Origin: a virus
IMG/VR virus record: IMGVR_UViG_3300045988_125893
Length of the DNA: 64,000 nucleotides
Direction: 5' to 3' (one strand)
In this document: in pieces, positions 7,344 to 51,832 of the stretch
How positions within the stretch are numbered: position 1 is the stretch's first letter
Layout of the letters: every line of letters starts with the position of its first letter
Translations under genes and position numbers: made by a program
The notes under the pieces: generated by a model
Databases searched by the model: none
The model's input: only the letters and a program-made list of their open reading frames with translations
Told to the model about the DNA's origin: nothing

Positions 7344-7811
7344 ATGAATTTATTATACGTAGTTGAATCAGGAGACTATAAGTACCTCGTCTTCGATGAA
7401 ATGCCTGATAAAATTAGTACAAAGTACGGAGATGATACCATTATTGGAAGGATAGGAGGTATATTCTATGATTTCCTTGCAAAGAGAAATGAGAGAAGAG
7501 AAGCTTTCGGAGGTAGAAAGTTCGATATCGTACTTGACAACGGAGAGATAGAGAAGTGTGAAGGGCAATGGTGGGATGCGGTGACAGAGAGAGCAAGAGA
7601 AGAATTGGAAAAAGAGGGAAATCCATTTTCCAAAATGATGTTGATTGGTGTTTCTTCAGTAGATAGATTATCGGATTGCTATGTGTATTATGGGTTATGG
7701 GCATCCAAAAGTAAGATTGAAGAAATGATAGCTGACTACAAAGGTCGTATATATGAGTATTACGAATTTAAGGAAGAGATCATTAATAAGATAAGGCAAT
7801 TATATACCTAA
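7344..7811 (+). CDS. hypothetical protein
   Basis: ORF 155 aa. Confidence 0.6.
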   Translation: MNLLYVVESGDYKYLVFDEMPDKISTKYGDDTIIGRIGGIFYDFLAKRNERREAFGGRKFDIVLDNGEIEKCEGQWWDAVTERAREELEKEGNPFSKMMLIGVSSVDRLSDCYVYYGLWASKSKIEEMIADYKGRIYEYYEFKEEIINKIRQLYT

Positions 7812-31157: not shown

Positions 31158-32858
31158 ATGACAACAATTATGTACGTATCAGCAATTTTAGCTGTAGTGA
31201 TTATTTTGACGATCATCGGGATCTTATCAAGGTATCGTAGATGTAAGCCTAATCAGGTCTTGGTCGTTTATGGTAAGACAGGTGGGGAAAAGAAATCGGC
31301 GAAATTGTATCATGGTGGAGCGGCATTTGTATTGCCTATTATTCAAAGCTATGATATTTTGTCTATGGAACCTATGCAAATAGATTGCAGGCTTACCGGC
31401 GCTTTGTCATCTCAAAATATCAGAGTGGATGTACCTACTACTATTACGGTAGCGATCAGCACAAATCCTGAAATCATGCAGAATGCAGCAGAAAGACTTT
31501 TGGGGATGGATACTGAATCTACTGAAAATCTTATTACGGATATCGTTTATGGCCAAATGCGTTTGATCATTGCTGAAATGACGATTGAAAAACTTAATTC
31601 TGATAGGGATGAGTTTTTAGACAAAGCAAGAAAGAACATTGATAACGAGCTTAACAAGTTGGGTCTTTACCTTTTGAATATTAACATCAGCGACATCAGG
31701 GACGAAGCTGGCTATATCATGAATCTTGGCAAAGAAGCTGAAAGTAAGGCCCTGAACGAAGCACAGGCTAATATCGAAGAACAGGAAAAGCTGGGTGCTA
31801 TTAAAATTGCTGTACAACAGAAAGAAAAAGAAACGGCTGTAGCCAATACCCAAAAAGAACAAGAGATTCAAATTGCTTATACTGAAAAAGAAAAGGAAAC
31901 GGTAGTAGCTGAAACAAGGAAAGAAAAAGAAGTAGCTTTGGCTTTAACCGACAAAGAAAAACAGATTGGTGTAGCCCAAGCAGACAGAGATAGGGCTGCG
32001 GTTATTGCAAAGACTTTGGCTGACAAAGAATCGGCGATCGCAAGATCTAAGGCAGAACTTGAGGTAAACAAAGCTGAGGCTGAAAGAATGGAAGAAGTCG
32101 GGAAGAATAAGGCTGAGGCTGATAAACAAGCAGCTATAGCAATCCAAGATTCCGAAGCTCAGATCAAGAAAGCCGAAGCTGAGAAAAACGCATCTGTGGG
32201 TTATAACAATGCCCAGAAAGAGGTTGCTATATCAGAATCAGAATTACAGGTTATCAAAGCTCAATCAGAAAAGAAGGCCGGAGAAGAGAGAGTTAAGTCG
32301 GAAGCGGCTGTAAAAACGGCAAAAGAGCTTGCTGATAAAGAAGTGGAAGAGGCTAAGGCTGAGAAAGTTCAAGCTGCGCTTCGAGCTGAAAAGATTGTGC
32401 CGGCTGAAACCCAAAAGCAAGAAGCCATTCTGCAAGCTGATGCTGAAGCAGAAAAGATTAAACGCCGGGCTGCCGCTGAAGCAGCAGCTAATTTGGCAAA
32501 AGCAGAAGCCGAAGCAAAGGCTATTAAGATGAAGTTGGAAGCAGAAGCCGAAGGTAAGAAAAAGTCGTTGATGGCAGAAGCAGAGGGATTTAAGGCTATG
32601 GTGGAAGCAGCAGAATCGAATCCTCAGATTGCTATCCAGTATAAGATGGTTAATCAGTGGAAAGAAATAGCCGGAGAACAGGTCAAGGCATTTGAACACA
32701 TTAATCTTGGAAATATTACGGTATTTGATGGAGGTCAGAATAGTACCGGTAATTTCCTTAACAATGTTGTTAAAACCGTCGCTCCGGCATTGGGAGTAAT
32801 TGATCAGCTTCCTATTGCAGATACTTTAAAGAAGTTAAAAGGAGATGATAAGAAATAA
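31158..32858 (+). CDS. flotillin-like SPFH/band-7 protein (FloT/YqiK-like)
   Basis: N-terminal TM helix, SPFH core, long Ala/Glu/Lys-rich KEKE coiled-coil repeats; 566 aa. Confidence 0.85.
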   Translation: MTTIMYVSAILAVVIILTIIGILSRYRRCKPNQVLVVYGKTGGEKKSAKLYHGGAAFVLPIIQSYDILSMEPMQIDCRLTGALSSQNIRVDVPTTITVAISTNPEIMQNAAERLLGMDTESTENLITDIVYGQMRLIIAEMTIEKLNSDRDEFLDKARKNIDNELNKLGLYLLNINISDIRDEAGYIMNLGKEAESKALNEAQANIEEQEKLGAIKIAVQQKEKETAVANTQKEQEIQIAYTEKEKETVVAETRKEKEVALALTDKEKQIGVAQADRDRAAVIAKTLADKESAIARSKAELEVNKAEAERMEEVGKNKAEADKQAAIAIQDSEAQIKKAEAEKNASVGYNNAQKEVAISESELQVIKAQSEKKAGEERVKSEAAVKTAKELADKEVEEAKAEKVQAALRAEKIVPAETQKQEAILQADAEAEKIKRRAAAEAAANLAKAEAEAKAIKMKLEAEAEGKKKSLMAEAEGFKAMVEAAESNPQIAIQYKMVNQWKEIAGEQVKAFEHINLGNITVFDGGQNSTGNFLNNVVKTVAPALGVIDQLPIADTLKKLKGDDKK

Positions 32859-34890: not shown

Positions 34891-35268
34891 ATGAAAAAAG
34901 AAGTTACAATCAAGGAGGACATGGCTGCGTTTTATAGAAATGCAGGAAAGGAACTATGGATTTATAACGGACTTTTTAGAAACAAGGTATTGTCTATAAA
35001 AAAAGATAAAGCCATTATCATGTGTGAAACTGATGCTGAATATTCTGTGCTGATAGAAGATAATCAGTTTATTGCCGTAGCAAAAAACATGGATTATGAT
35101 TACTGCTGCGCATTCACATTAGGTAATGCCGAGGCTTATGGAGATCGTATGGGTATATCGTGCAGTGTATGCTTGCTTGAGGATAACGAAGATAAAGCAA
35201 GAGAGATGCTAAAGGAGGCAATAATAGAACTTTCAAAAAACAGTAAAATAGATTGCGATGGGCTTTGA
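34891..35268 (+). CDS. hypothetical protein
   Basis: ORF 125 aa. Confidence 0.55.
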   Translation: MKKEVTIKEDMAAFYRNAGKELWIYNGLFRNKVLSIKKDKAIIMCETDAEYSVLIEDNQFIAVAKNMDYDYCCAFTLGNAEAYGDRMGISCSVCLLEDNEDKAREMLKEAIIELSKNSKIDCDGL

Positions 35269-37627
35269 ACTTAGACCTTACCAAAAAGAGGCAGTAGATG
35301 CCGGGCTTAAGTTTCTTACAGGAAGATCTAAGAAGCCTGGCATAATAGTAGCTCCATGCGGATGTGGAAAGAGCCTTCTGATATCCAAGATAGCACATGA
35401 AATAAATAGACCGACGTTAGTGTTACAGCCCTCAAAAGAGATTCTGGAGCAGAATTATGCAAAGGCTGTATCATTCGGTTCTAAACCTACCATATATTCT
35501 GCCTCATGTGGCGTAAAGGAATTATCGGCTATGACTTATGCTACACTTAAAAGCATAAAGAAAGACGTAGCAAGGTTGAAAGATATAGGGATAGATACGA
35601 TCCTGATAGATGAATGTTTTACTGGAGATGTGGAGATATTAACCGAAAAAGGGTTTGTTCAATTTAATAAATTAGAACAAAATGTAAGGGTAGCTCAATA
35701 TGATAAAGGATTTATTGATTTTGTGATGCCTATCAGATATATCAACAAGCCGCACGATGGTGACATTTGTTTACTTCATATTAAACATGGAATAGATCTT
35801 CCAGTGACAAAGAATCATGATTTCTTGTTTTATGATAAGAAATACGGTAAATGGTATAAACAGAAAATATCTGAAGCTTCTTTTAAATCTGGGAAATGCA
35901 TTCCGGTATCAGGGATATCACGTGTAGATAGCGAAGGCGATTCCTTATCTGACATGGAGAGGTTGTTTATAGCAACACAAGCAGATGGAAGTATTCATAA
36001 CAAAAACGAAAATGACACAATTATATCTTTCTCATTTTCAAAAGAAAGAAAAATAAAAAGGATTCATTATTTATGTAAGAATGCAAACGTTGAGATATGG
36101 GAAGTTAAAGGAAAAATAGAAAAAGAAGGAAATACGAAAAACAGAAGAAGGTTTATGGTAAGAATGCCAAAGTTTACAACAAAGGATATTCGAAATCATA
36201 TATCATTCCCAATGTCTTACGAAAAAGCAAGATCGGTAATAGAAGAGTGTTCTTTATGGGACGGCAGTATTATAGGGAATACGATGCTTTATTATTCATC
36301 GACCGATAAAACGCAGGTGGATTTTTATAATTCTGTAGCCACAATAGCTGGCCACGGATGTTATGTTTCTATTGAAAAGGATGGCAGAAAAGAAACATAT
36401 TCGGATGTTTATAGGCTTTTTATAACAAAAGACAAAAAACTAAGAGGCACTAACTCTATGTATAAACGATATGAAAAATACACCGGACAAGTTTATTGCG
36501 TAGAGGTTCCATCTGGATGTATAGTACTAAGATATAAAGGATATACATTTGTTTCTGGAAATTGTCATTCAGGATATTCTCCTGAAGAAGGTTCTGAGTT
36601 TATAGAGTTTATGAGCGAGTTTCCCGAGGCGAAGGTGCTGGGCTTCACCGCCACTCCCTGCCGCCTCCGAACCTACAGTTCCATGCTGGAAGGAAACTAC
36701 AGCAAGCTCAATATGCTGACGAAAGACGAGCATAATTTCTTCAAGAAAATAGTTCATGTGACTCAAATACAAGAATTAACTTCTCAAGGGTTTTGGTGTC
36801 CACTTAAGTACGAACGATGGTCTTTTGATGAATCGGCTCTGATGTTGAACAGCACCGGAGCTGAATACACCAACGAATCTATTAAAGAAAGTATTGTACG
36901 AAATGGCTTAAACAACTCTATCTACAAGCGCCTTCTTCAACTTATGAACGAACGTAAAGCCATTTTGGTTTGCATGGATTCTATTGAATCATGTAATAGA
37001 ATATCAGAGTTCATGAATGCCAAGATGGGAGCCATAACCGGTGTCGTAACATCGCTAACAACCAAAAAGAAAAGAGAGCAAATTATATCCGATTTCAAAG
37101 AAGGAAAGTTGAAGGTGGTTTTTAATTATTCAACGCTTGCTACCGGATTTGATTTTCCTGAACTTGATTGCGTGATGTTTGGTCGCCCAACATTCTCATA
37201 TTCAACATATTACCAAATATTAGGCCGCGCCGTCCGCATCCATCCTGACAAGAAAGAGGCGCTGATAGTTGATTGCTGCGACAACATGAGGCGTTTTGGT
37301 CGGATAGAAGACTTGACAATCGAACAATTCCCTTCTAAGGGCTGGTGTATGTTTGCCGGAGATCAACTTCTGTCCAATATAAGGATGGGTGATATTATTA
37401 CCAAAGACGAGATCCTTCGCCGGGCAGCCTCGCTTAAATCTGTGAATGGAGATGGTAGGAGAGAAGACGATCTTGACAGTATAATAATGTGGTTTGGAAA
37501 ATATGAAGGAATTAGATTCAAGGACATACCGGTGTCGTATTTTAGGTTCTTGGCTGAGAATATGGCAATAAAACCAGGAGACAGGAAAGAAAAGATTATC
37601 GAATATTATAATAGGATAAAGGCATGA
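35258..37627 (+). CDS. SF2 DExH-box helicase (ResIII/UvsW-like) interrupted by an intein
   Basis: LRPYQKEAV (Q motif), APCGCGKS (Walker A), DE|CH motif II restored after intein removal, TATP motif III, QILGRAVR motif VI. Confidence 0.85.
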   Translation: MGFELRPYQKEAVDAGLKFLTGRSKKPGIIVAPCGCGKSLLISKIAHEINRPTLVLQPSKEILEQNYAKAVSFGSKPTIYSASCGVKELSAMTYATLKSIKKDVARLKDIGIDTILIDECFTGDVEILTEKGFVQFNKLEQNVRVAQYDKGFIDFVMPIRYINKPHDGDICLLHIKHGIDLPVTKNHDFLFYDKKYGKWYKQKISEASFKSGKCIPVSGISRVDSEGDSLSDMERLFIATQADGSIHNKNENDTIISFSFSKERKIKRIHYLCKNANVEIWEVKGKIEKEGNTKNRRRFMVRMPKFTTKDIRNHISFPMSYEKARSVIEECSLWDGSIIGNTMLYYSSTDKTQVDFYNSVATIAGHGCYVSIEKDGRKETYSDVYRLFITKDKKLRGTNSMYKRYEKYTGQVYCVEVPSGCIVLRYKGYTFVSGNCHSGYSPEEGSEFIEFMSEFPEAKVLGFTATPCRLRTYSSMLEGNYSKLNMLTKDEHNFFKKIVHVTQIQELTSQGFWCPLKYERWSFDESALMLNSTGAEYTNESIKESIVRNGLNNSIYKRLLQLMNERKAILVCMDSIESCNRISEFMNAKMGAITGVVTSLTTKKKREQIISDFKEGKLKVVFNYSTLATGFDFPELDCVMFGRPTFSYSTYYQILGRAVRIHPDKKEALIVDCCDNMRRFGRIEDLTIEQFPSKGWCMFAGDQLLSNIRMGDIITKDEILRRAASLKSVNGDGRREDDLDSIIMWFGKYEGIRFKDIPVSYFRFLAENMAIKPGDRKEKIIEYYNRIKA
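35615..36562 (+). other. intein (316 aa) with LAGLIDADG-like homing endonuclease core, inserted in helicase motif II
   Basis: begins CFTGDVEILTEKG (block A), VTKNH (block B TxxH), LFIATQADGSIH (LAGLIDADG-like), ends FVSGN followed by +1 Cys (CHS). Confidence 0.7.
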
Positions 37628-37980: not shown

Positions 37981-38016
37981 GTCCATAAAAAAAACACTAT
38001 AAGTAAAATTTAACAT

Positions 38017-38082
38017 AATACGCTTGTATTAAAATTACACAATCTATATTTTTACGTCGTGTAATTTTAATACAAGCGTATT
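38017..38082. repeat. 24-bp perfect inverted repeat (aatacgcttgtattaaaattacac / gtgtaattttaatacaagcgtatt) with 18-nt spacer
   Basis: read directly; intergenic between 37980 and 38104; T-rich tail follows. Confidence 0.85.
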
Positions 38083-38103
38083 TTATTAAATAATTTAAAG
38101 GGT

Positions 38104-38841
38104 ATGATTTCTAAAGACAGGTTATTGTATGGAGTGGTAATCAGACAGGACATTAAAACTTCCTTTATGTCATTAACTGGATTACAAGAGGCATATACAA
38201 GAAAAAGAGTGGAGATGGGGTGGAATGATAAGAGAATAGAAAATATTCTTTCGAACAAGGAGAGCGCAGAAAGGATATTTTATATTCTTAAAAAACAGAA
38301 ATACATAAAAAGTGAAACCCTGAAAGAGTTTATGGATATAGTGGAAAACAACTCTTTGATAAAAGTAATGAAGTGGTATAATGCCTATAAGACTACAGGA
38401 AGAGGAACAAACAGAAATGTTATGTGTGATCCCTACATATGGGTATTAGTCGCTATAGAATTAAATCCTATGCTGTATGCAGAAGTCACTGGATGGTTAA
38501 ATGATAAACTTATTTTGGATAGAATAGAGATAGGGGATAAATACAATACTCTTTCAAGGTCTGTATCAAAATTTGAAGATGTTGATTACATAGAAATGGC
38601 TGATAAATTAAACTGGATTGTATTCAATAAACATAAATATGTTTTAGATAACAGGGCAACTCAAGAGCAGTTAAAAGAACTTGAAATGCTTCAATCCAAT
38701 CTTGCATTTTGTATAGAAATGGGAACCATATCTTCTTTTTCTGATTTAATAAACATGATGGGGACTATATATAAGAAAAAGTGGGGATCGGGAGCAGTAT
38801 CTTCTAAAAATATAAAATCTTCAAATAATGAAAACAAGTGA
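38104..38841 (+). CDS. hypothetical protein
   Basis: ORF 245 aa. Confidence 0.6.
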   Translation: MISKDRLLYGVVIRQDIKTSFMSLTGLQEAYTRKRVEMGWNDKRIENILSNKESAERIFYILKKQKYIKSETLKEFMDIVENNSLIKVMKWYNAYKTTGRGTNRNVMCDPYIWVLVAIELNPMLYAEVTGWLNDKLILDRIEIGDKYNTLSRSVSKFEDVDYIEMADKLNWIVFNKHKYVLDNRATQEQLKELEMLQSNLAFCIEMGTISSFSDLINMMGTIYKKKWGSGAVSSKNIKSSNNENK

Positions 38842-40070: not shown

Positions 40071-40378
40071 CAATAGAACAACTAAATTATTTATTAAGAA
40101 AAGAGCTTCGTGCTATAAAAAACCATAAAGACAATATTGATAGAATCAAAAAAGAATATTTTGATTCCAATTATGGGTTAAAAGAAGGAGATAAGATCCG
40201 TATTTTACACGAAGCAGGAGATGAAATGATAGGCTTCTTGAAAAAAGTTGAAGTATGTGAAGACGGAGATCTGTACTTGACAATCCAAAAACAAAACGAA
40301 AAAGGTGACAGAGGCAGAGGAAAATGGAATATGTATCTATCATCAAAATTAATTAAAATAGAAAAATTATTAGATTAG
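40067..40378 (+). CDS. hypothetical protein
   Basis: ORF 103 aa. Confidence 0.5.
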   Translation: MTIEQLNYLLRKELRAIKNHKDNIDRIKKEYFDSNYGLKEGDKIRILHEAGDEMIGFLKKVEVCEDGDLYLTIQKQNEKGDRGRGKWNMYLSSKLIKIEKLLD

Positions 40379-40385
40379 CAACGAT

Positions 40386-40916
40386 ATGATTAGAGCAAGA
40401 TTTTACATTAAAAAATCCGACTGCGACAACGACTACCGTCCAGTCAAATGGCCTATAAAATATCCATATTGGTGTAGTGCAGAATCCGATAATTCATTTG
40501 TATTGGTAGCGTATGCTGAAGATGAAGACAGCATAAAAGAATTGTGGCCGGAGGCGTATGATATTAATGTCTTAGAGAAAGATACCGAAATTAGATTCAC
40601 ATTAAGATTTCCTAAGCCGGAATGGTATGAATTGTACGAAAAGGAATTAGAAAAATATAATAGATTCATATGGATTACAGATGCGTGCATGAGAGACGGT
40701 ATAATAAGAAAAGTAAAAGCTAAGATAGAAGAGTATGATGGTCTTTTGTTAGCCGACATTCCTGATAGGTTTACTCCTTATGAAATAGGAAGGGATGCTT
40801 TTGAGAGCAAAGAAGAAGCTTTAAAACATGCAGAGAAACGGAGAACGTACCTGATCGAGTCTACTAAGAAACAATTGAATGAACTTGAAAATCTAAAATT
40901 CGAATGTGATGATTAA
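40386..40916 (+). CDS. hypothetical protein
   Basis: ORF 176 aa. Confidence 0.55.
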   Translation: MIRARFYIKKSDCDNDYRPVKWPIKYPYWCSAESDNSFVLVAYAEDEDSIKELWPEAYDINVLEKDTEIRFTLRFPKPEWYELYEKELEKYNRFIWITDACMRDGIIRKVKAKIEEYDGLLLADIPDRFTPYEIGRDAFESKEEALKHAEKRRTYLIESTKKQLNELENLKFECDD

Positions 40917-43019: not shown

Positions 43020-44080
43020 CAATCCTCAAAAATAGAAAAGAATTAGAAATTTAACAACAAAAAAAATAATTCGAAATCAGATATTCGATGAATTTAATTG
43101 ATTTTTAGTTGGTTATATGAATATATTTTTGTATTTTTATAATCCAATATAAAGATAAGAAGTATGTTCGATTTTAAATCACTTCCTGAATTTTCAAAAT
43201 TGTTTCCTGATGAGCAAGCGTGTATAACCTTTCTTGAAAAAGAAAGGTGGGGAAATCACGTTGTTTCTCCTTTTGATCCGGAATCTAAGGTGTATAAATG
43301 CAAAGGAAATAGGTACAAGTGTAAAAACACGGGTAAATACTTCAATGTTCGTACAGGAACGATTTTTGAAAATTCAAAGGTTTCATTACGAAAATGGATG
43401 CTGGCTTGTTATTTTGTTGTTGAAATGAAAAGAGGAGTATCATCTTTACAGTTATCTAAAATCGTGGGAGTAACACAGAAAACGGCTTGGTTTATGCTTC
43501 AACGTATTCACAATTGTTTTAGTATTGAAATAAAAGAGCCGTGTTTGAAAGGCGAGATTGAAGTGGATGAAACTTATATTGGTGGCAAAAACAAGAATAG
43601 ACATAGTAAGGATAAAGTTAAAGATGCACAGGGGAGATCTTTAAAAGATAAAACCCCTGTGTTTGGGACACTCCAACGAGAAGGATTTGTTGTCGCTTAT
43701 GTCGTTACAGACACAAAAGGTAAAACCTTACTTCCTTTGATATACAATATCGTTCATCCTAATTCTACCATATATTCTGACGAATGGTATGCGTATAACG
43801 GGATCGACAAAGAAAAGTTTGATCATCAAAAAGTATATCACAAAAAGGGAGCGTATGTAATAGGCAGAAGATCAACAAACACAATCGAAGGATATTGGAG
43901 CCATTTGAAGAAAATGATTTCTGGAACCCATTTCTGGGTGTCGAGAAAACATCTTCAAAGATATGTAGATTGCGAATCTTTCAGATATAACACGAAACAT
44001 CTATCGGAATCTGAAAGATTCGATGTATTTTTGCAGAATACCAAACGACGATTAAGGTATTCACAAATTAATTAATGCAA
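43020..44080 (+). mobile_element. IS1595-family element (boundaries not resolved; no terminal inverted repeats found by eye)
   Basis: transposase gene; A/T-rich upstream; next gene starts 4 nt after transposase stop, so right end may include a passenger. Confidence 0.35.
43164..44075 (+). CDS. IS1595-family (ISXO2-like) DDE transposase
   Basis: N-terminus FPDEQACITFLEKERWGNHVVSP...SKVSLRKWMLACYFVV...SSLQLSKIVGVTQKTAWFMLQRIH closely matches IS1595 transposase pattern; 303 aa. Confidence 0.85.
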   Translation: MFDFKSLPEFSKLFPDEQACITFLEKERWGNHVVSPFDPESKVYKCKGNRYKCKNTGKYFNVRTGTIFENSKVSLRKWMLACYFVVEMKRGVSSLQLSKIVGVTQKTAWFMLQRIHNCFSIEIKEPCLKGEIEVDETYIGGKNKNRHSKDKVKDAQGRSLKDKTPVFGTLQREGFVVAYVVTDTKGKTLLPLIYNIVHPNSTIYSDEWYAYNGIDKEKFDHQKVYHKKGAYVIGRRSTNTIEGYWSHLKKMISGTHFWVSRKHLQRYVDCESFRYNTKHLSESERFDVFLQNTKRRLRYSQIN

Positions 44081-45114
44081 TGGAAAAAATAGATAATAAA
44101 ATCAAGTACGAAGGAGAATTAGACCTCAATGGTTTAAAAATTCCTTGTTACGTTTTGGAGGATGGTAGAAGAGTCCTATCTACTACCGGAATGCAAAACG
44201 TTTTAGGACTTGACGATCCTAATGATAGATCGGGTACAAAATTAGTAAAAATACTATCCTCCAAAGCTATAAGCGACTGTATTCCAAATGGTTATTTATC
44301 GGTAAAAGATAAGTCATTTCCTTGTTTTAAAGGAAATAGAAGAATAATGGCTTATGAAGCTACAATATTACCTGATATTTGCGAAATCATGCTTAATGCC
44401 AGAGATTGTGCATTAAGCAAAAAAACATCTTTAGGTGTCAATCAACAAACAGTCATAAATAGATGTGATATAATTGTTAGAGCACTAGCGAAAGTTGGTA
44501 TCATAGCATTAGTGGATGAAGCCACAGGGTATCAAGAAGACAAAAATAGGGCGAAAGACGAACTACAGAAATTCCTAAATCAATTCCTTACAGAGGAAGC
44601 AAGTAAATGGGTGAAAACATTTAATGATAGCTTTTTTGAAATGATTTACAAGATGAGGGGATGGGATTGGGAAAATATACATAAGAGGCCCGCCGTTGTT
44701 GGTCAGTGGATCAATGATATTGTTTATAAAAGACTTGGACCGGGAGTTCTTGAAGAACTTAAGATAAGAAACCCTAAAAACGAGAAAGGGTATAAACCTA
44801 AAAAAGATCATCAATTCTTATCAGAGGATCTTGGAAAGCCTAAATTAAAAGAACATTTAGCTGCAATAGAGGCATTGGGAAGGGCTTCAGACTACAATTG
44901 GGATAAGTTCAAAGAAATGTTAGATAAGGCTTTACCAGTACAAGATAAGTTGTATGACGAGATAATGAGGGGAGAATGTGGAGATCCAAACATAGAAGAA
45001 GATATGAAGAGAATAGCTAAAGGCATATTTAGCTATAATCCCAAAACAGATCCTAACGACCCTCTTTTTGATAAAACCACCTCTAAAAAAGGTGGTAACG
45101 AAAAAGAATTTTAA
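44080..45114 (+). CDS. P63C-domain-like protein
   Basis: central region ...WVKTFNDSFFEMIYKMRGWDWEN..KRPAVVGQWINDIVYKRLGPGVLEELKIRNPKNEKGYKPKKDHQFLSEDLGKPKLKEHLAAIEALGRAS matches remembered P63C pattern; 344 aa. Confidence 0.6.
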   Translation: MEKIDNKIKYEGELDLNGLKIPCYVLEDGRRVLSTTGMQNVLGLDDPNDRSGTKLVKILSSKAISDCIPNGYLSVKDKSFPCFKGNRRIMAYEATILPDICEIMLNARDCALSKKTSLGVNQQTVINRCDIIVRALAKVGIIALVDEATGYQEDKNRAKDELQKFLNQFLTEEASKWVKTFNDSFFEMIYKMRGWDWENIHKRPAVVGQWINDIVYKRLGPGVLEELKIRNPKNEKGYKPKKDHQFLSEDLGKPKLKEHLAAIEALGRASDYNWDKFKEMLDKALPVQDKLYDEIMRGECGDPNIEEDMKRIAKGIFSYNPKTDPNDPLFDKTTSKKGGNEKEF

Positions 45115-45415: not shown

Positions 45416-48400
45416 CTACTTGTAGCTCACATCATCGTCTCCTTCTGAATCAGGAGTGGCACCGATGAAAAACATCATTGACTTGTTGTTCGTCTGCTGC
45501 CACCAGTTATAGGCACGTGCTACGTCTTCCGGCGTCTTAATGTTATACCATTGTTTGATAAACGTCTGTTTAGCGAGTTGTCTAAATAACTTAGACTCAC
45601 CTTTATATGTACCAGATGTTACTTTATCAAGTGAGTAGTTCCTGAGATCGGTGAGATCCTTCAGTTTCCGTCCCATGACAAATGGGTCATTAATGATATC
45701 CACCACATTAAGCTCCATAATAAACGGCATCTGTGAAGCTATTTCATTTATGGTTCTAAATCCTACATAAGATCCGAATTGAGTAAGCCAGCTTTCCTCG
45801 TTTTCATCATCATCACGCCATCCGGCAAGAAGCATAGACACGGCCTGCATGATGAGGAACGTGCCGGCATAAACACTGAGGCGTTTAAGATTAGTCTTTT
45901 CCACCTCACCCATCTTATCTTTATTTTCGTTCCAGGCATCTATGATATTTTTCATACCAGGCTCGGAAGCTAAGCTAAATGTTTTAGCTATCATATTCTT
46001 TAACGTAATTGACAGCCCTTCCTCTTCTTGCATTGTCTGGAAATTGAATCCCCTTCTTTTCCACAGACGTTGAGCCGCCAGCACCAGCCATCCTCGGTGG
46101 GCAGTCATGAACCTGGCTATCCAGTTACGTGATGCGGCGGTTCGGTTTTCTTCATTCAAAGATCCGTTACATATCTGTGACAAGCTACGAACCTGATTAC
46201 GGGTTATAGCCATCTGGGTTTCAACTTCCTCAACAGTAACACCCGATCCTGGTTTCACAACCACCTTGCCGTCTACAACATCTACCATACTCCATAAAGT
46301 ACGATCTCTTAATGCATCCCATTCTCTTTTTATAGTGCTCTGTTCTTTATTGCGTTCTTTTTCCATCTTGAAATCCTGGAACGTGTAGAACCGACCTTTG
46401 TAATAACGAACGTTATCCATCGTAGCGATCATAACCTGCGGATCAAGAGGGTAGTTCATGATTTCCATAAAAGCATACATCGGTGAACGCATTAAGGTCC
46501 TGGCCGCCCTATTATATCCGGCACCATACATACGATTTCGGATATTGAATATCCCCATTCTCTCACCTATGACATATAATTTGCTTTTTCTATCTATGTC
46601 TCCGGTTTCTGCTATACAAGATGGCGCAAGACGTGAAAACTCAGCCGATGCGTATTTAAGGGAATCTTTGCTTATATATTGTCCTACGGCAGATTCCATG
46701 ATGAGGTTAATATGACCTGTCAGAGCGCCGGTAGCTGCCACAAACGGGGACAGCGCTAAGTTCATGACCGACATAAACCTTTCAACGGCCATCATAATTC
46801 TTGTAAGATCTATCGTGTATCCACCGATGTTAACCGTAAGTTTCTTGGTGTTCATCCTAATGCCATAATAATGGTCATTAAAGAAGTCTCTAAACATCTG
46901 GTATGCTTGAGTTGCCTCAGCTTTCTTACCGCCTTCAAATTGCTTATTCAGTAACATCTGCTCCAGTCCTTGGGCAAGCTCTATAGACTTCTGCTTTTCG
47001 TTGTATAACGATGATTGCATCATAAGCATCGAATAAGAATAACCAAAATCATGAGATACGTCATCTTGGTTCTCTAATTCATATATGTAGTATTTAGGTA
47101 TAGACCTAATCCTATCTTCTGGATCATATACTTCCCCTTGTCTGGTTTTACCGTATAGAGAATCGTCTACTCTGTCCAGACAGAGATCTGATACAAAATT
47201 ACGAACCGTATTTTTGAAGTTGATACCCAATCCCTCCATACGTTCTATATCTTGTTTGGATATCTGTGGAATAGCATACAAATTGGGGCTCTGCTCTTTG
47301 TATAAGGAAAGGGATTGTCTTTTTATTTCCTTAAGTTTTTGAATCATATTCCATTGCTCTACGTTTTTAGTAGCAATCTCATTACCATCAGCATCATATC
47401 TAATGCCGAAGTCATTGAAATACGATTCATCACGATACAGGCTCTTCTTGGGCATACGATAACCATACCCATGATCTTTTACATAATCTGGGTTACGACC
47501 GCTATTTTCAGCTTCAGATTCAGCCACCCACGCTCTTGCAGGGTCGAAAGATAGGTACGATATATTCATACCATAATCTTGTGTGGATGTCCCGTTCTGT
47601 ACGTCTTTAACCATCTGTGCCACGTCTATCTCACCTCGACCTATTTTACCAAGCATAGCCGCATATCCGGTAGGAGCCATGCGTTTGTAATATGAAAAGA
47701 CTTGACTTCTGGCAAATTCATTAACAATAGCATTAGCCTCTTCTATACCTGATTCTCTTGTGTTATTTAAAAACAAGCTGGCCATCTTAGTATTGACAGC
47801 ATTCCTAAAATCTCTACCGTCTAATTCTTTGTTTATTCCAAGCTTTTCTGACAAGTAGTTGGTTTCAGATACAGTAAACAAATATCGGTTATCAGCAGCC
47901 TTAAATAGTTTATCCCTTAAGGCTTGAATCCTTTTTGCTTTCTTTGCCGTAGTATGACGTTGCACAAACTTCCATTCCACTTCCTTGGAGTCAGCAAGAG
48001 CATTTAAATAAGATTGATTGACTTCGTTTTCAGCCTTACTGCTTTTAGTAAGGTATTTATCAATATCTTCAAGACCCACCATCTTAGCATAATCTATTAA
48101 AATAGCGTAATCGGTTTCAATAGCTTCAGATGCAGCCCTAAAAGCATCTCTTTCAGATGAGGTAAATGTCGCTTCATTGATTTCTCCGATGTCAGCCACA
48201 TCGCGGTTATTCCCAATTATTTCCTTGATGATAGCCCTGTTTTTTTCTATATCTTTCACAATAGCTTCTACGTCTGTCGCATCTCTATCACTTGTCGTAG
48301 AATTAATGATATCATGCGCCATTTTAAGATACGAAGCCTTGTTGTTTGATTCGGTGCGTGCCGACTGATCTGACTCTATATCATTCCAAAACTGATCATT

Positions 48401-51400
48401 AAAAGCCAGGTGTCCTCCTAACATAAGCGTTCTCAGTGCAGCCTCCCCTCCAGACTCACGCTGAATCGTTCTCAATCTTTCCAAAAATGATTCTGATACG
48501 GCATTAGTAACATTATTTGATTCTTTTCTCCATACTTCATTTATAGCTTGTATTTCTTTAGCCATCTTGAGTTGATCACCGGTTTTATCGACTCTTCTGG
48601 TTCCTACATATATGTATTCTGAAGCTGCTTCCTTACGTTGTTTACGAAGCAGTCCTTCTTCTTCATAATTACTGCTCTTGAAGTAAGCAACTTCATCAAA
48701 ATTACCATTGCTATCAATAAAAGGTTGCCTCAATATCCGTTTTTGCCGGGAAAGAGCATTAAGATATTCTTTAGTTGTTTGAGAAACCGGATACCCCAAT
48801 TCTTCTTCAGCCTTTTTGTATATGGATTCCATTCTTGTGGCATAACTTTCACTAAATTCCAGTTCTGAATTTTCAGCATCCCACTTCTCCATCTGTTCTG
48901 TATAAATCCTTTCCTGCTCGATGGTAAAGATGTCGGTATTAACCCTATCAGAAGAAGGTTTGAATTTAGCGTTCTCAGTAACCGTATTTCCATCCTTGTC
49001 AACTACTTCTCTTTTAAACACATAATTACGGTTATTGTCAACCACATCATTGATTTCTTCTTCTGATATCTCTATGTTCATGGCAGTTGCAAACGCTCGC
49101 ATCTGCGCCAGCTTCTTATTACGATCGTATTTAGCCATATCAAGAGCACTACGAAGATAATTAGAAGTCTTGCCGTCTACTTTCTGAAGCAGTTTTTCAA
49201 ATTCAGATTTATTGAAACCATGTTTTTTCGCATATGCCAGGAAGTCGGATATGGCTGGCTGGGCATTCACCATCGCATTATAATTGTCTTTGGCAATCAT
49301 AGCTCCAAGAGCGTTATTAAACGGGCTGGAAGAATGTTCTAATATACCAAACCACCTACTTATCCAGGACACATCGTGTTGAACTTTATCAAAGAACTCT
49401 TTTACTTTCTTTACCTTATCTGCCGGCACATGAAGTTCGTTCATTAACTTGTCAAGCAACGTACTTTCATCAAGATCTTGTACTGATTTAATATCAGACT
49501 GAATACCATTGATGTCGGCAATGACGGTATTGATCCTATTTGTATAATCTTGCTTTTCACGTTCGTCAAATTCGGTACTTCTGTTACGGATATATCCTCG
49601 AAGATCGTTCATGATCGGAAGAACCTGATTGTTGATAATATCTACGTTCTTTCGATCATTGGTATTGAAATGAAGTTTACCGTCTTTGGTATCACCATGA
49701 AGGATAGTATTTACTACATTGCTTAAGTATCTGACCTGAGCTTCGGCTGTGGAGATCATGCTATTCATGGCAGCCGCCATCTCATTTTTGTCTATTTCGG
49801 TCTCTACCTTATTTATCTTATCTTCTATGGTCTTAAGTTGAGCAAGGGTCATAGATGTAGTTACAGCCCTATCAGAGCTTATCTGACGTAAGTCTCTCAA
49901 TGTTTTTCTCAATGCCCGGATCTTAGACTCAAGAAACTTGTTCTTGTTCATAGAGGAAAGAGAGTATAATGTAAAATCATTATCCTTTAAAAGAGAAGTA
50001 TCAAATCCTTTATCTATGTCGGTAATAGCAAGATCACGAATGTTTTTAATAACGTTATTCAAATCTTGTCTTTGGGTAGATAAAGCTGATTTAAGCCAGT
50101 TTACGATTCCAGAGAGAAGCTGCCGGACGCGTCCCAGGAAGGAGGTGGGCTCTATGGGCGCCGTTCTGTCCTGCATCTCCCTGGCAAGGATCTTTCCAAG
50201 AATTTCTTTCCTAACTACATTGTCAAGTTCAGTTCCTTCATATACCTTACCGTATGTATTATAATACTGATTTGCATACTGATTCCATTCTTCAGTGCCT
50301 TCTACGTCTTGCAAAACAGATTCAACAGCATTCTGATCTCTGTACGCCTCTACAAGGAAGTGGGCTGTTTCTTCTACTAAGTCAGACAAAGTAGCATCTT
50401 CACCGACTGCTATTACGTTATTGGCAATATCCGCCAATGCTTTAGCAGAAGGTTCGTGTCCGTATTTAGTTTGGTACTTCTCTATATAATCGGTCATGCC
50501 AACGACACTAACGCCCAGCGTTTTCAGTATCTCAACAATAGAATTTCGTTGATTACGTTCCTCTTGGCTATAATCCGATACTATCTTAGCTTTAGTATCA
50601 GCATAAAGATCATTGTCTTCTAATATAAATGAAACTACAAGCGCATCAAAGTGATCGTATTTAGCATCCAATTCATTGTATCTTCCAGACTTAAGATCGC
50701 TCTTTATCTGCTCCTTGCTAACTCTTTCTGTTCCTCCGGTGGCGAGTCTCATAGTCACCTTACTATTATCCAATGAATTTATGGTTATCATGCCTTGATC
50801 ATTCATGGAAACATCAGAACTGAAATGATTACGAAGTTCGGTATAAGCTAAGGCTGAATTGAAAAGTCTAATTTGTCCTGCATGTCCTTCTCCTGTAAGA
50901 TAATAGCTTCTTGTTTCCGGATCGAATATCTTGGATCCTGACAAAAGACCTTTCTTTATAAGGTAGTTTATTATCCCACCTTTTGTTGATAAAGAAGTGG
51001 AAGCAGAGGCGGTCATAACAGGTATAAAAGATTTGGGGTTGTTAAGGACATACTTTCCAGCCTTGTAAGTAATGTCTGCCACGCCATCCCAGGCAGATTC
51101 TTGAACGGTGCCAGATAAGAATCCTATTCTGATATCATTCCCGCCAGAGCGAAGAGCTTCTCCGTAATCTTCAAATAATTGATTACGATCATTCATAAAA
51201 AACAAACGAGGTTCTCCAGTCTGATACGTTACACCCACAGGATTAGAATCTGTTTCTGGTAGCTCTTCTGGACTAAATATCTTAAGACCGTCTTTTATAA
51301 CCATATAATTAACATCATTATCCTGTACCATAGATACGGGAGTGAAGTCCGAAGATATAGCATCTTGTAGATACTGCCCTGAGTCTATTCCTGGTTCTTC

Positions 51401-51832
51401 CGGCACGGAGATCCTTGACGGAACCATAGCATCCACCAACATAATATTATCACCCAGATCTTGGCTATAGAATCCAAAGCCTGATTCTTGAATCCCATAA
51501 GGTGCATCTGATTTCGACACAAGAATAGGGTTGCTCATCTTAGAAGCCTTATCCAGCACCCTTTCTCTATAGGTCTCTGGAATAAGGCCGATGTTAGATT
51601 TTACCTTATTGTAAGCCTGTTTGTTGATAGGCACATTCCTTCTCCAGTCACCAAAAGCCTTTAAGAACTTATTAGAAAATACGGTTTTAAAAACAGTAGT
51701 AGCCCGTTCCCTATTTTCCATAAGAGGAATAGATGCTATCTTATCGAATAACATAGACCTGTCCCCTGATCTGGTAGAGACAGAAACAACTTTCTTTTTA
51801 TTATCTCTTTTAATAATACACGTTGATACCAT
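45416..51832 (-). CDS. giant 2138-aa protein, probably virion-associated (tape-measure/ejection/cargo-type); function unknown
   Basis: uninterrupted 6.4-kb ORF heading the minus-strand block with structural-like genes; no Walker or polymerase motifs recognised by eye. Confidence 0.9.
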   Translation of the reverse strand: MVSTCIIKRDNKKKVVSVSTRSGDRSMLFDKIASIPLMENRERATTVFKTVFSNKFLKAFGDWRRNVPINKQAYNKVKSNIGLIPETYRERVLDKASKMSNPILVSKSDAPYGIQESGFGFYSQDLGDNIMLVDAMVPSRISVPEEPGIDSGQYLQDAISSDFTPVSMVQDNDVNYMVIKDGLKIFSPEELPETDSNPVGVTYQTGEPRLFFMNDRNQLFEDYGEALRSGGNDIRIGFLSGTVQESAWDGVADITYKAGKYVLNNPKSFIPVMTASASTSLSTKGGIINYLIKKGLLSGSKIFDPETRSYYLTGEGHAGQIRLFNSALAYTELRNHFSSDVSMNDQGMITINSLDNSKVTMRLATGGTERVSKEQIKSDLKSGRYNELDAKYDHFDALVVSFILEDNDLYADTKAKIVSDYSQEERNQRNSIVEILKTLGVSVVGMTDYIEKYQTKYGHEPSAKALADIANNVIAVGEDATLSDLVEETAHFLVEAYRDQNAVESVLQDVEGTEEWNQYANQYYNTYGKVYEGTELDNVVRKEILGKILAREMQDRTAPIEPTSFLGRVRQLLSGIVNWLKSALSTQRQDLNNVIKNIRDLAITDIDKGFDTSLLKDNDFTLYSLSSMNKNKFLESKIRALRKTLRDLRQISSDRAVTTSMTLAQLKTIEDKINKVETEIDKNEMAAAMNSMISTAEAQVRYLSNVVNTILHGDTKDGKLHFNTNDRKNVDIINNQVLPIMNDLRGYIRNRSTEFDEREKQDYTNRINTVIADINGIQSDIKSVQDLDESTLLDKLMNELHVPADKVKKVKEFFDKVQHDVSWISRWFGILEHSSSPFNNALGAMIAKDNYNAMVNAQPAISDFLAYAKKHGFNKSEFEKLLQKVDGKTSNYLRSALDMAKYDRNKKLAQMRAFATAMNIEISEEEINDVVDNNRNYVFKREVVDKDGNTVTENAKFKPSSDRVNTDIFTIEQERIYTEQMEKWDAENSELEFSESYATRMESIYKKAEEELGYPVSQTTKEYLNALSRQKRILRQPFIDSNGNFDEVAYFKSSNYEEEGLLRKQRKEAASEYIYVGTRRVDKTGDQLKMAKEIQAINEVWRKESNNVTNAVSESFLERLRTIQRESGGEAALRTLMLGGHLAFNDQFWNDIESDQSARTESNNKASYLKMAHDIINSTTSDRDATDVEAIVKDIEKNRAIIKEIIGNNRDVADIGEINEATFTSSERDAFRAASEAIETDYAILIDYAKMVGLEDIDKYLTKSSKAENEVNQSYLNALADSKEVEWKFVQRHTTAKKAKRIQALRDKLFKAADNRYLFTVSETNYLSEKLGINKELDGRDFRNAVNTKMASLFLNNTRESGIEEANAIVNEFARSQVFSYYKRMAPTGYAAMLGKIGRGEIDVAQMVKDVQNGTSTQDYGMNISYLSFDPARAWVAESEAENSGRNPDYVKDHGYGYRMPKKSLYRDESYFNDFGIRYDADGNEIATKNVEQWNMIQKLKEIKRQSLSLYKEQSPNLYAIPQISKQDIERMEGLGINFKNTVRNFVSDLCLDRVDDSLYGKTRQGEVYDPEDRIRSIPKYYIYELENQDDVSHDFGYSYSMLMMQSSLYNEKQKSIELAQGLEQMLLNKQFEGGKKAEATQAYQMFRDFFNDHYYGIRMNTKKLTVNIGGYTIDLTRIMMAVERFMSVMNLALSPFVAATGALTGHINLIMESAVGQYISKDSLKYASAEFSRLAPSCIAETGDIDRKSKLYVIGERMGIFNIRNRMYGAGYNRAARTLMRSPMYAFMEIMNYPLDPQVMIATMDNVRYYKGRFYTFQDFKMEKERNKEQSTIKREWDALRDRTLWSMVDVVDGKVVVKPGSGVTVEEVETQMAITRNQVRSLSQICNGSLNEENRTAASRNWIARFMTAHRGWLVLAAQRLWKRRGFNFQTMQEEEGLSITLKNMIAKTFSLASEPGMKNIIDAWNENKDKMGEVEKTNLKRLSVYAGTFLIMQAVSMLLAGWRDDDENEESWLTQFGSYVGFRTINEIASQMPFIMELNVVDIINDPFVMGRKLKDLTDLRNYSLDKVTSGTYKGESKLFRQLAKQTFIKQWYNIKTPEDVARAYNWWQQTNNKSMMFFIGATPDSEGDDDVSYK

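Follow-up and report, generated by a model that had tools for sequence, protein, structure and literature searches.

A probable LAGLIDADG endonuclease-bearing intein within motif II of a RadD-like helicase of a human-gut phage, and its family

In a stretch of 64,000 nucleotides (nt) from IMG/VR virus record IMGVR_UViG_3300045988_125893 (the whole stretch is called the window below), the gene for a RadD-like superfamily 2 (SF2) DExH DNA helicase is interrupted within its motif II. The interrupting segment, nt 35615-36562, very probably encodes a functional intein of 316 amino acids (aa) that carries a homing endonuclease with two LAGLIDADG motifs. A preliminary description drawn from the letters alone had proposed such an intein, and its coordinates and quoted peptides (an open reading frame (ORF) of 789 aa with the insert at aa 120-435) were all correct. 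The intein itself is ordinary; the hybrid active site found at the level of its family is the part worth pursuing. The features discussed are the following.

35258..37627, plus strand: precursor ORF, 789 aa and stop, a RadD-like SF2 DExH DNA helicase interrupted by the intein (ORF call; ResIII and Helicase_C matches; NCBIfam RadD)
35258..35614, plus strand: N-extein, aa 1-119, with motif I (Walker A) APCGCGKS at nt 35351-35374 and the D-E of motif II in LIDE at nt 35603-35614
35597..35614, plus strand: 5' flank haplotype ACG ATC CTG ATA GAT GAA, tied to intein presence (flank variants in intein-plus versus intein-minus alleles)
35615..36562, plus strand: predicted intein, 316 aa (precursor aa 120-435), 36.6 kDa (absent from the csAssE-Sib allele; HINT and LAGLIDADG fold; 3,586 relatives at E<=1e-3)
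35615..35926, plus strand: HINT N-terminal lobe, intein aa 1-104, with Cys1 at 35615-35617 and block A CFTGDVEILTEKG
35807-35809 and 35816-35818, plus strand: Thr65 and His68 of block B, LPVTKNHDFLF, in the HINT N-terminal lobe
35927..36427, plus strand: LAGLIDADG homing-endonuclease domain, intein aa ~105-271
35957-35998, plus strand: LAGLIDADG motif 1, ERLFIATQADGSIH, with catalytic Asp124
36236-36274, plus strand: LAGLIDADG motif 2, VIEECSLWDGSII, with catalytic Asp216
36428..36562, plus strand: HINT C-terminal lobe, intein aa 272-316
36497-36499, plus strand: Cys295 at position 4 of block F (F:4), in QVYCVEVPSGCIVLRYKG (QVYCVEVPSG), which also holds Pro299
36554-36562, plus strand: Ser314-Gly315-Asn316 of block G, YTFVSGN
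36563..37627, plus strand: C-extein, aa 436-789, with Cys+1 at 36563-36565, then the His that completes DECH
36641-36658, 37214-37237 and 37481-37561, plus strand: C-extein motif III (GFTATP), motif VI (QILGRAVR) and small C-terminal domain, respectively

The insert lies in-frame, after Glu119, exactly between the D-E and C-H residues of SF2 motif II (Walker B), a site written DE/CH below, with the slash at the insertion point. Upstream, ...GIDTILIDE leads into CFTGDVEILTEKG..., and downstream ...YTFVSGN is followed by CHSGYSPEE. As had been described, removing the insert restores DECH, with TATP and QILGRAVR present downstream; the resulting 473-aa protein carries GCGKS (motif I), DECH (motif II), TATP (motif III) and QILGRAVR (motif VI). 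Since the intein and the C-extein both open with TGT, the insertion boundary is ambiguous by 3 nt in the DNA, and the only chemically valid reading is Cys1...Asn316/Cys+1. The predicted masses are 36.6 kDa for the intein, 53.8 kDa for the spliced helicase and 90.4 kDa for the precursor.

An allele without the insert is found in a deposited genome. Comparison with deposited phages by megablast gave one close relative, csAssE-Sib (OR575929.1; human gut, Russia; 151 kb), whose record gives Caudoviricetes as its only taxonomy, and the source of the window is a human-gut phage closely related to it. csAssE-Sib matches the locus in two pieces with 96% nt identity, together 1,422 nt, that is, 2,370 minus 948. 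Its 'ATP-dependent DNA helicase' (WOZ57338.1, 473 aa) is identical to the spliced product at 465 of 473 aa, gapless, with the junction at DE/CH, and the empty target site of this type reads GATACCTTATTGATAGACGAA/TGTCATTCAGGATATTCTCCT. Homologues carrying the same segment as a non-splicing domain had been named as what would speak against an intein; the closest homologue is without the segment. Our literature search returned nothing specific on csAssE-Sib or on motif II helicase inteins.

The helicase is complete only after splicing, as had been argued. The Pfam ResIII match ends at aa 120 in the precursor, whereas in the spliced product it is continuous over aa 2-163/164 (73 bits), and a Pfam DEAD-domain match emerges as well. 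The colinearity proposed as a check holds both with csAssE-Sib, gapless across the junction, and with Escherichia coli RadD (YejH; PDB 6jde), which is colinear with the spliced product over aa 2-361 across DECH (E=4e-41). The two share the SF2 core, a native DECH motif II and motifs I, III and VI, whereas the C-terminal region of RadD is unlike that of the phage helicase. The best NCBIfam score was obtained for RadD (NF053632), at 187 bits against an equivalog cut-off of 720 bits; the protein is therefore called a RadD-like phage SF2 helicase and not a RadD orthologue. Its gene sits in a replication/recombination module, adjoining a PD-(D/E)XK exonuclease. The identical 789-aa protein recurs in independent metagenome assemblies, on no fewer than 24 public contigs, and its precomputed annotation consists of ResIII and Helicase_C, with no intein annotation.

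The insert has Cys1, the Thr-x-x-His of block B (Thr65 and His68) and Asn316/Cys+1. Both peptides singled out earlier were correctly placed, VTKNH being block B and LFIATQADGSIH the first LAGLIDADG motif; the second motif had not been mentioned. Each of the two LAGLIDADG helices ends in an acidic residue (...IATQADGSI, Asp124; ...CSLWDGSI, Asp216). An AlphaFold2 model, for which ten relatives served as input, reached a mean predicted local distance difference test score of 91.1 and a predicted template modelling score of 0.88. The top Foldseek matches in the PDB were all endonuclease-bearing inteins (TliVMA, 4e-13; PhoVMA; PI-SceI; PI-PfuI), and the central domain matched I-DmoI. Both folds of the proposed element are thus found in the predicted structure, a HINT fold and a LAGLIDADG fold like I-DmoI or domain II of PI-SceI, which, with the double LAGLIDADG motif, bears out the original call. 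A single-sequence search of PDB sequences with the intein gave nothing meaningful. The insert also matches the interior of PHROG families for ribonucleotide reductase (RNR) and a PhoH-like protein, which are unrelated hosts.

The intein belongs to a large family. When 1.84 billion cluster representatives were searched exhaustively with HMMER, 3,586 matched at E<=1e-3, 1,528 at E<=1e-10 and 224 at E<=1e-30; the idea of a rare intein, which had come from a word-indexed protein search with 10 relatives, was withdrawn on these numbers. Residues were counted in the ~146-149 best full-length representatives. Cys1 is found in 148 of 149, Thr at position 7 of block B (B:7; Thr65) in 146/149 and His at B:10 (His68) in all 149. 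Cys occupies F:4 in 148/149, Cys1 and Cys-F:4 occur together in 147, and Pro is at F:8 in 140/149. At the C-terminus, the penultimate Gly (148/149) and the terminal Asn (147/149) are followed by Cys at +1 in 139 of 146, and the two LAGLIDADG Asp are kept in 148/149 (Asp124) and 146/149 (Asp216). B:12 is M, L, Q, I, F or V, never W, and G:5 is T in 59, V in 33, S in 24 and I in 16. The signature C1...TxxH...(V/I)(Y/W)C-x-x-V-P...x-G-N followed by C or S is present in 147/149 and in seven cultured-phage inteins. The penultimate Gly, correctly noted before as uncommon, is therefore no peculiarity of this copy: it is an obligatory family trait, functionally required in two characterised relatives, AceL NrdHF and Bethlehem RDF.

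The insertion is exactly at DE/CH in 119 of 146 representatives. Further sites are in RNR R2 and NrdH-F, NAMPT, DnaB, RecA/UvsX and other DE/C Walker-B-like positions, and unrelated hosts also include TOPRIM, DNA polymerase and Thy1. The members of the family's clusters have essentially no names, and none is termed an intein. Among deposited phage genomes, 112 records hold relatives with 24-34% identity, in RNR beta of Tenacibaculum PTm1, in RNR and NAMPT of Staphylococcus Kayvirus and Silviavirus, in DNA polymerase of Vequintavirus, in TOPRIM primases of mycobacteriophages, in Thy1 of Corynebacterium phage P1201, in Lak megaphages and in PhoH-like proteins. In the ~70 of 112 deposited-phage matches listed, none lay under an SF2 DExH helicase annotation and three were in DnaB-type primase/helicase genes. 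The six deposited-phage relatives that we examined all have C1, TxxH, VYC-x-x-VP and x-G-N followed by C or S.

Family members in the RNR small subunit (P0007, P0008, P0009, P0025, P0113 and P0152-P0159) lie inside di-iron ligand motifs, at the R2/NrdF sites FME/CVHAKSY, RDEx/CH and FSE/CIHEQSY. P0025 is a glutaredoxin-R2 (NrdH-F) fusion, a host type as in AceL NrdHF. Given that RDEx/CH locally resembles the helicase site DE/CH, these positions suggest that ectopic jumps between look-alike targets may have occurred. One metagenomic helicase (P0011; 1,042 aa, ENA) has two inteins, a Hom_end_hint-type one from aa 33 (Pfam, 64.5 bits) and a member of the present family at DE/CH (aa 461-766).

The active site joins traits of two splicing classes. 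As in class 1, Cys1 is present and invariant, with Cys at F:4 where class 1 inteins usually have Asp. Class 3 inteins are defined by the lack of a position-1 nucleophile, Trp at B:12 and a near-invariant Thr at G:5 (PMC2807308, PMC7891396), and usually have Ser or Thr at +1 (PMC5222942). The window intein has the class 3 Cys at F:4 (Cys295), together with Cys1, Phe70 at B:12 and Ser314 at G:5; with a nucleophile at position 1 and no Trp at B:12, membership of class 3 was rejected. The closest solved relative of the family is nevertheless AceL NrdHF (PDB 6zgq; putative phage contig; Hoffmann et al. 2021), an experimentally proven class 3 split intein (PMC7891396). It was found only with a HINT-only family profile, which it matches at E=3.9e-13. 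AceL NrdHF has Ala1, the branch-point nucleophile Cys124 at F:4, Ser65, His68, Arg69 and Met70, a Pro128-Gly129 kink and Thr144-Gly145-Asn146 at its end; the F:13 His and the penultimate His are both absent, and the G145H change abolishes splicing activity (PMC7891396). In the profile alignment, Cys295 of the window intein falls on Cys124, Thr65 and His68 on Ser65 and His68, Pro299 on Pro128 and Ser314-Gly315 on Thr144-Gly145.

Two thiols, Cys1 and Cys295, are candidates for the start of splicing. Cys1 and Cys-F:4 are both strictly conserved, and we therefore argue that both are needed; natural variants point both ways, with Ala1 and F:4 Cys in AceL NrdHF, and Cys1 and F:4 Gly in P0007. We lean, by a modest degree, towards splicing initiated by Cys1 with Cys295 as an essential partner, which may serve as a relay branch point or replace the F:4 Asp.

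A class 3-type route has a smaller but real chance of being correct. Here, Cys295 would directly attack the Glu119-Cys1 bond and form a branched thioester in block F, which would then pass to Cys+1, with Cys1 not initiating. The alignment of Cys295 with the AceL branch-point Cys124 speaks for this route, as do the common F:8 Pro kink, absent F:13 His, penultimate Gly and Ser/Thr at G:5 (PMC7891396), yet B:12 is never Trp in the family and Val or Ile at G:5 in about one-third of members would be unable to form the Cys-His-Thr triad. The conservation of F:4 Cys in 148/149 representatives is as expected from such a route; that of Cys1 in 148/149 is not, since a dispensable Cys1 would drift, as in class 3 inteins. 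Three WCT inteins with Ser or Cys at position 1 have been reported (Tori et al., PMC2807308), but the family has Cys at +1 in 139/146 where class 3 typically has Ser or Thr (PMC5222942), and in P0007 Cys1 goes with a Gly at F:4. More tentatively, inteins of this family that worked by a Cys1 to Cys-F:4 to Cys+1 relay, or from either entry point, might be a natural intermediate between class 1 and class 3. The characterised relatives nearest to the window intein lie to either side of that boundary, Bethlehem RDF with Cys1 and AceL NrdHF, the proven class 3 intein, with Ala1.

We then considered the intein in the phage population. A C-extein-only search of IMG/VR gave 245 matching stretches, and alleles were counted in the best 80 loci. 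The intein (94-100% identical) occurs on 13 distinct viral contigs and is missing from 78 of the 80 best helicase loci; it is therefore a minority presence/absence allele. All catalytic residues are kept in 14/14 intein copies. The ratio of nonsynonymous to synonymous divergence (dN/dS) lies at 0.08-0.11 for the HINT and endonuclease domains alike (0.08-0.10 for the endonuclease; 14 alleles), and the intein and the exteins are under purifying selection. The 5' flank of intein-plus alleles has the consensus ACG ATC YTG ATA GAT GAA, in which the variants at -16, -15, -13 and -4 are carried by 85-100% of intein-plus and 0-3% of intein-minus alleles; this haplotype is probably a co-conversion tract or a founder haplotype. 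A divergent intein copy (L014) lies on another background, its 5' flank and N-extein being identical to those of an intein-minus allele (L026) while the C-exteins of the two have diverged (dS ~0.3-0.5). In all, at least three distinct flank/extein backgrounds carry the intein, that of L014 among them. Between the window and L010, dS is 0.14 in the intein and 0.41 in the exteins. The polymorphism, the linked flank, dN/dS and the low divergence of the intein are consistent with homing, short of proof.

A co-conversion tract had also been considered from 25 of 56 substitutions clustered round the insertion site; it was dropped, the intein-minus controls being mosaic in the 5' half as well. As this half is mosaic even among intein-minus alleles, we kept only the four linked flank variants as homing evidence. 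Likewise, 20 'recoded' intein-minus alleles (TTGGTGGACGAA/TGCCACTCGGGG) were considered as endonuclease-resistant, which is unsupported as a site-specific effect: their differences span the whole 5' region. Twelve of the 80 helicase alleles (L041, L048, L055, L058, L064, L066, L068, L082, L087, L088, L091 and L095) have DEVH (11) or DEAH (1) in place of DECH (GATGAG/GTGCATAGCGGG), with a more divergent N-extein (~86% nt identity, with indels). These alleles are without the +1 Cys and their target DNA is different, and therefore they would not productively host the window intein; they probably resist cutting as well.

It is unlikely that the intein splices but has a dead endonuclease and is inherited vertically, being merely tolerated. 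This reading draws on the LAGLIDADG Pfam match, which is sub-threshold, and on the single flank haplotype of most intein-plus alleles, which is compatible with one ancient insertion. Both catalytic Asp are conserved, however, the endonuclease has dN/dS as low as the splicing domain (0.08-0.10), the intein sits on at least three flank/extein backgrounds including that of L014, and between the window and L010 it has diverged less than the exteins, all of which speak against this reading.

Several points weigh against a functional, homing intein at this site. The experimental evidence of splicing is that from the relatives Bethlehem RDF and AceL NrdHF. The canonical penultimate His and F:4 Asp are both missing, with Gly315 and Cys295 in their places, and since the closest solved relative is class 3, Cys1 is insecure as the initiating nucleophile. 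The profile search proposed for the insert did return intein and LAGLIDADG matches, but all of them are below the curated thresholds of the hidden Markov models (HMMs): 14.5 against 35.8 bits for PF14890, 21.6 against 24.5 for TIGR01445 and 14.1 against 22.5 for PF14528 (LAGLIDADG_3). The Pfam intein model was also below threshold in 10/10 family members tested, and such scores reflect model coverage and are not evidence against the fold. As for mobility, the substitutions that cluster near the site are specific to it only in part, since intein-minus controls too show a generally mosaic 5' half of the gene, and the flank linkage is compatible with one origin followed by recombination and need not mean repeated homing.

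With a functional intein as the favoured reading, the following course may be proposed. The 90-kDa precursor, which has no intact motif II, would undergo autocatalytic splicing: the intein (36.6 kDa) would be excised and ...LIDE ligated to CHSG..., which would yield an active helicase of 53.8 kDa. Cys1 would carry out an N-S acyl shift aided by Thr65 and His68; the N-extein would then be transferred to Cys+1, with Cys295 acting as a relay nucleophile or as a catalytic partner in place of the F:4 Asp; Asn316 would cyclise without a penultimate His, on a scaffold that would require Gly315; and an S-N shift would form the peptide bond. In co-infection, the endonuclease of the free intein would cut intein-less alleles at the site coding for DE/CH, and repair would copy the intein into the cut allele (homing), so that the minority presence/absence polymorphism would be maintained. 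We infer the order of the steps, the role of Cys295 and the current activity of the endonuclease.

Splicing could in principle be conditional, disulfides among Cys1, Cys295 and Cys+1 gating helicase maturation by redox state in an anaerobic gut host. The three invariant active-site cysteines would suit such a switch, and a precedent is outlined for the Msm DnaB helicase intein as an oxidative stress sensor (PMC6195587); the idea is purely speculative, though, and Bethlehem RDF and AceL NrdHF splice fast and constitutively (PMC5050341, PMC7891396), which makes it improbable. A non-splicing accessory domain, or an insertion that has turned the gene into a pseudogene, with the helicase inactive or working with the domain in place, is a very improbable reading of the insert even though standard intein HMMs score below thresholds, given that the Walker B/DExH catalytic motif is split by it, that exteins and intein are under purifying selection, that homologous inserts occupy catalytic sites of unrelated enzymes and that two relatives splice experimentally.

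Several observations concern the neighbourhood of the gene. Compared to csAssE-Sib, the window has an additional 846-nt segment at 37981-38826, a clean insertion between two genes (position 7775/7776 of the csAssE-Sib locus). It carries a 245-aa ORF (38104-38841) with a weak PHROG 'amidase' match (2.6e-5) and no Pfam match, which is also found downstream of the helicase in other contigs encoding the identical precursor. Conversely, a DNA (cytosine-5)-methyltransferase gene of ~1.1 kb is present in csAssE-Sib (L001, 9299-10436) and missing at ~40367-40386 of the window. On an otherwise syntenic contig with the identical precursor (L107; ENA ERZ28596408), positions 1-427 hold an IS605 OrfB/TnpB gene (Cas12f1-like_TNB) on the opposite strand, which replaces small ORFs upstream of the helicase. 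Another mobile element in the window is a 303-aa ORF at 43164-44075 (plus strand), whose product combines a transposase zinc ribbon with a DDE transposase domain of IS1595/ISXO2-like type (PF12762, 3e-42), after which a P63C-domain protein is encoded at 44080-45114. A block of minus-strand genes opens with a virion structural protein of 2,138 aa (PHROG 37651, 8e-76) at 45416-51832 (minus strand), and GC skew and AT skew switch sign at ~45 kb, the boundary of two divergent transcription blocks. Upstream, a 566-aa protein with SPFH/Band-7 and flotillin domains (31158-32858, plus strand; Pfam 2.5e-25 and 1.6e-9), annotated in csAssE-Sib too, is unusual cargo near a phage replication region. ARAGORN found no tRNA genes in the 64-kb window. 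No Rfam family reached its gathering score there, and therefore neither group I nor group II introns are recognisable in the window, in contrast with the intron richness reported for related large gut phages.

Replication and repair proteins are known to carry inteins in their catalytic ATPase motifs, SF2 helicases and sites near Walker B among them (PMC4760082), and a penultimate Gly is on record for phage inteins (PMC5050341). The suggestion that this intein and its host gene may be unreported is true of the allele, whose exact protein has no intein annotation, and, by the deposited-phage matches listed, of the clade in helicase motif II, but not of the wider superfamily, which includes recognised inteins. 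New are the specific allele with its filled/empty population structure, a large and essentially unannotated clade specialised on DE/CH, and the tie of this clade to a proven class 3 intein while Cys1 is retained. The family puts a proven class 3 intein and Cys1-bearing inteins on one structural scaffold and thereby bears on class 3 evolution. Were the relay or dual-entry chemistry true, class 3 would have diverged from class 1, with the F:4 Cys arising first and the loss of Cys1 coming later, possibly repeatedly, which would argue against the convergent, protease-derived origin proposed for class 3 (Beyer et al. 2020, PMC7664689). Because curated HMMs miss the family, hundreds of metagenomic helicases are recorded as single proteins of 700-1300 aa without an intein call, and many phage gene models would be put right with an HMM for the family. 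Moreover, a natural filled/empty allele pair in an abundant human-gut phage offers a system for homing dynamics in the gut virome, and fast-splicing inteins that are without a penultimate His and tolerant near their junctions are of interest for protein engineering.

Among known systems, the class 1 inteins TliVMA (7qsu), PI-PfuI (1dq3) and PI-SceI (1vde) share with the window intein a HINT domain with nested LAGLIDADG endonuclease, Cys1, TxxH, a terminal Asn and a +1 nucleophile. They differ in having a penultimate His, typically Asp at F:4 and extra DNA-recognition regions that the window intein is without, and are only 9-14% identical to it. The genomic setting resembles that of the crAss-like large gut phages, in which inteins and introns abound (Yutin et al. 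2021, PMC7886860): these too are large gut phage genomes with conserved genes interrupted, for example by Hint-Hop inteins in TerL and group I introns in MCP, PolB and primase genes. We found no mention of the helicase intein in that study.

The Bethlehem RDF intein, from a mycobacteriophage metallophosphoesterase (Kelley et al. 2016), splices to completion, and G316H slows or impairs it; its endonuclease is toxic in E. coli, and the intein was classed as class 1 (PMC5050341). It matches the family HMM with 80 bits (HD/CSWTN...EVWCLRVPNG...LTGN/S, 317 aa), its similarity to the window intein being too low for detection in a single-sequence search. The two are alike in Cys1, TxxH, an F:4 Cys with Pro (VWCLRVPNG in Bethlehem RDF), the C-terminal Gly-Asn (TGN in Bethlehem RDF) and the LAGLIDADG domain, and differ in host protein, insertion site and Ser at +1 in Bethlehem RDF; no test of its F:4 Cys was found. 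The canonical class 3 (WCT) inteins MP-Be DnaB, Dra Snf2 and Msm/Mch DnaB-1 have in common with the window intein the F:4 Cys, the association with phages and helicases and, frequently, a LAGLIDADG domain (PMC2807308, PMC7891396). They differ from it in the missing position-1 nucleophile, in Trp at B:12, in a G:5 that is almost always Thr, in Ser or Thr at +1 and, in most cases, in a penultimate His.

With AceL NrdHF, the window intein shares the block B numbering, the F:4 Cys, the F:8 Pro kink, the absence of the F:13 His and the Thr/Ser-Gly-Asn terminus, and the NrdF/NrdHF type of host gene is also occupied by the window's family (P0007, P0025). The differences are Ala1 and Ser+1 where the window intein has Cys1 and Cys+1, Arg69 and Met70 in place of Asp69 and Phe70, and an RNR in place of a helicase as host. 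AceL NrdHF is moreover split and accompanied by a free-standing GIY-YIG endonuclease, whereas the window intein is contiguous, with its LAGLIDADG domain in frame.

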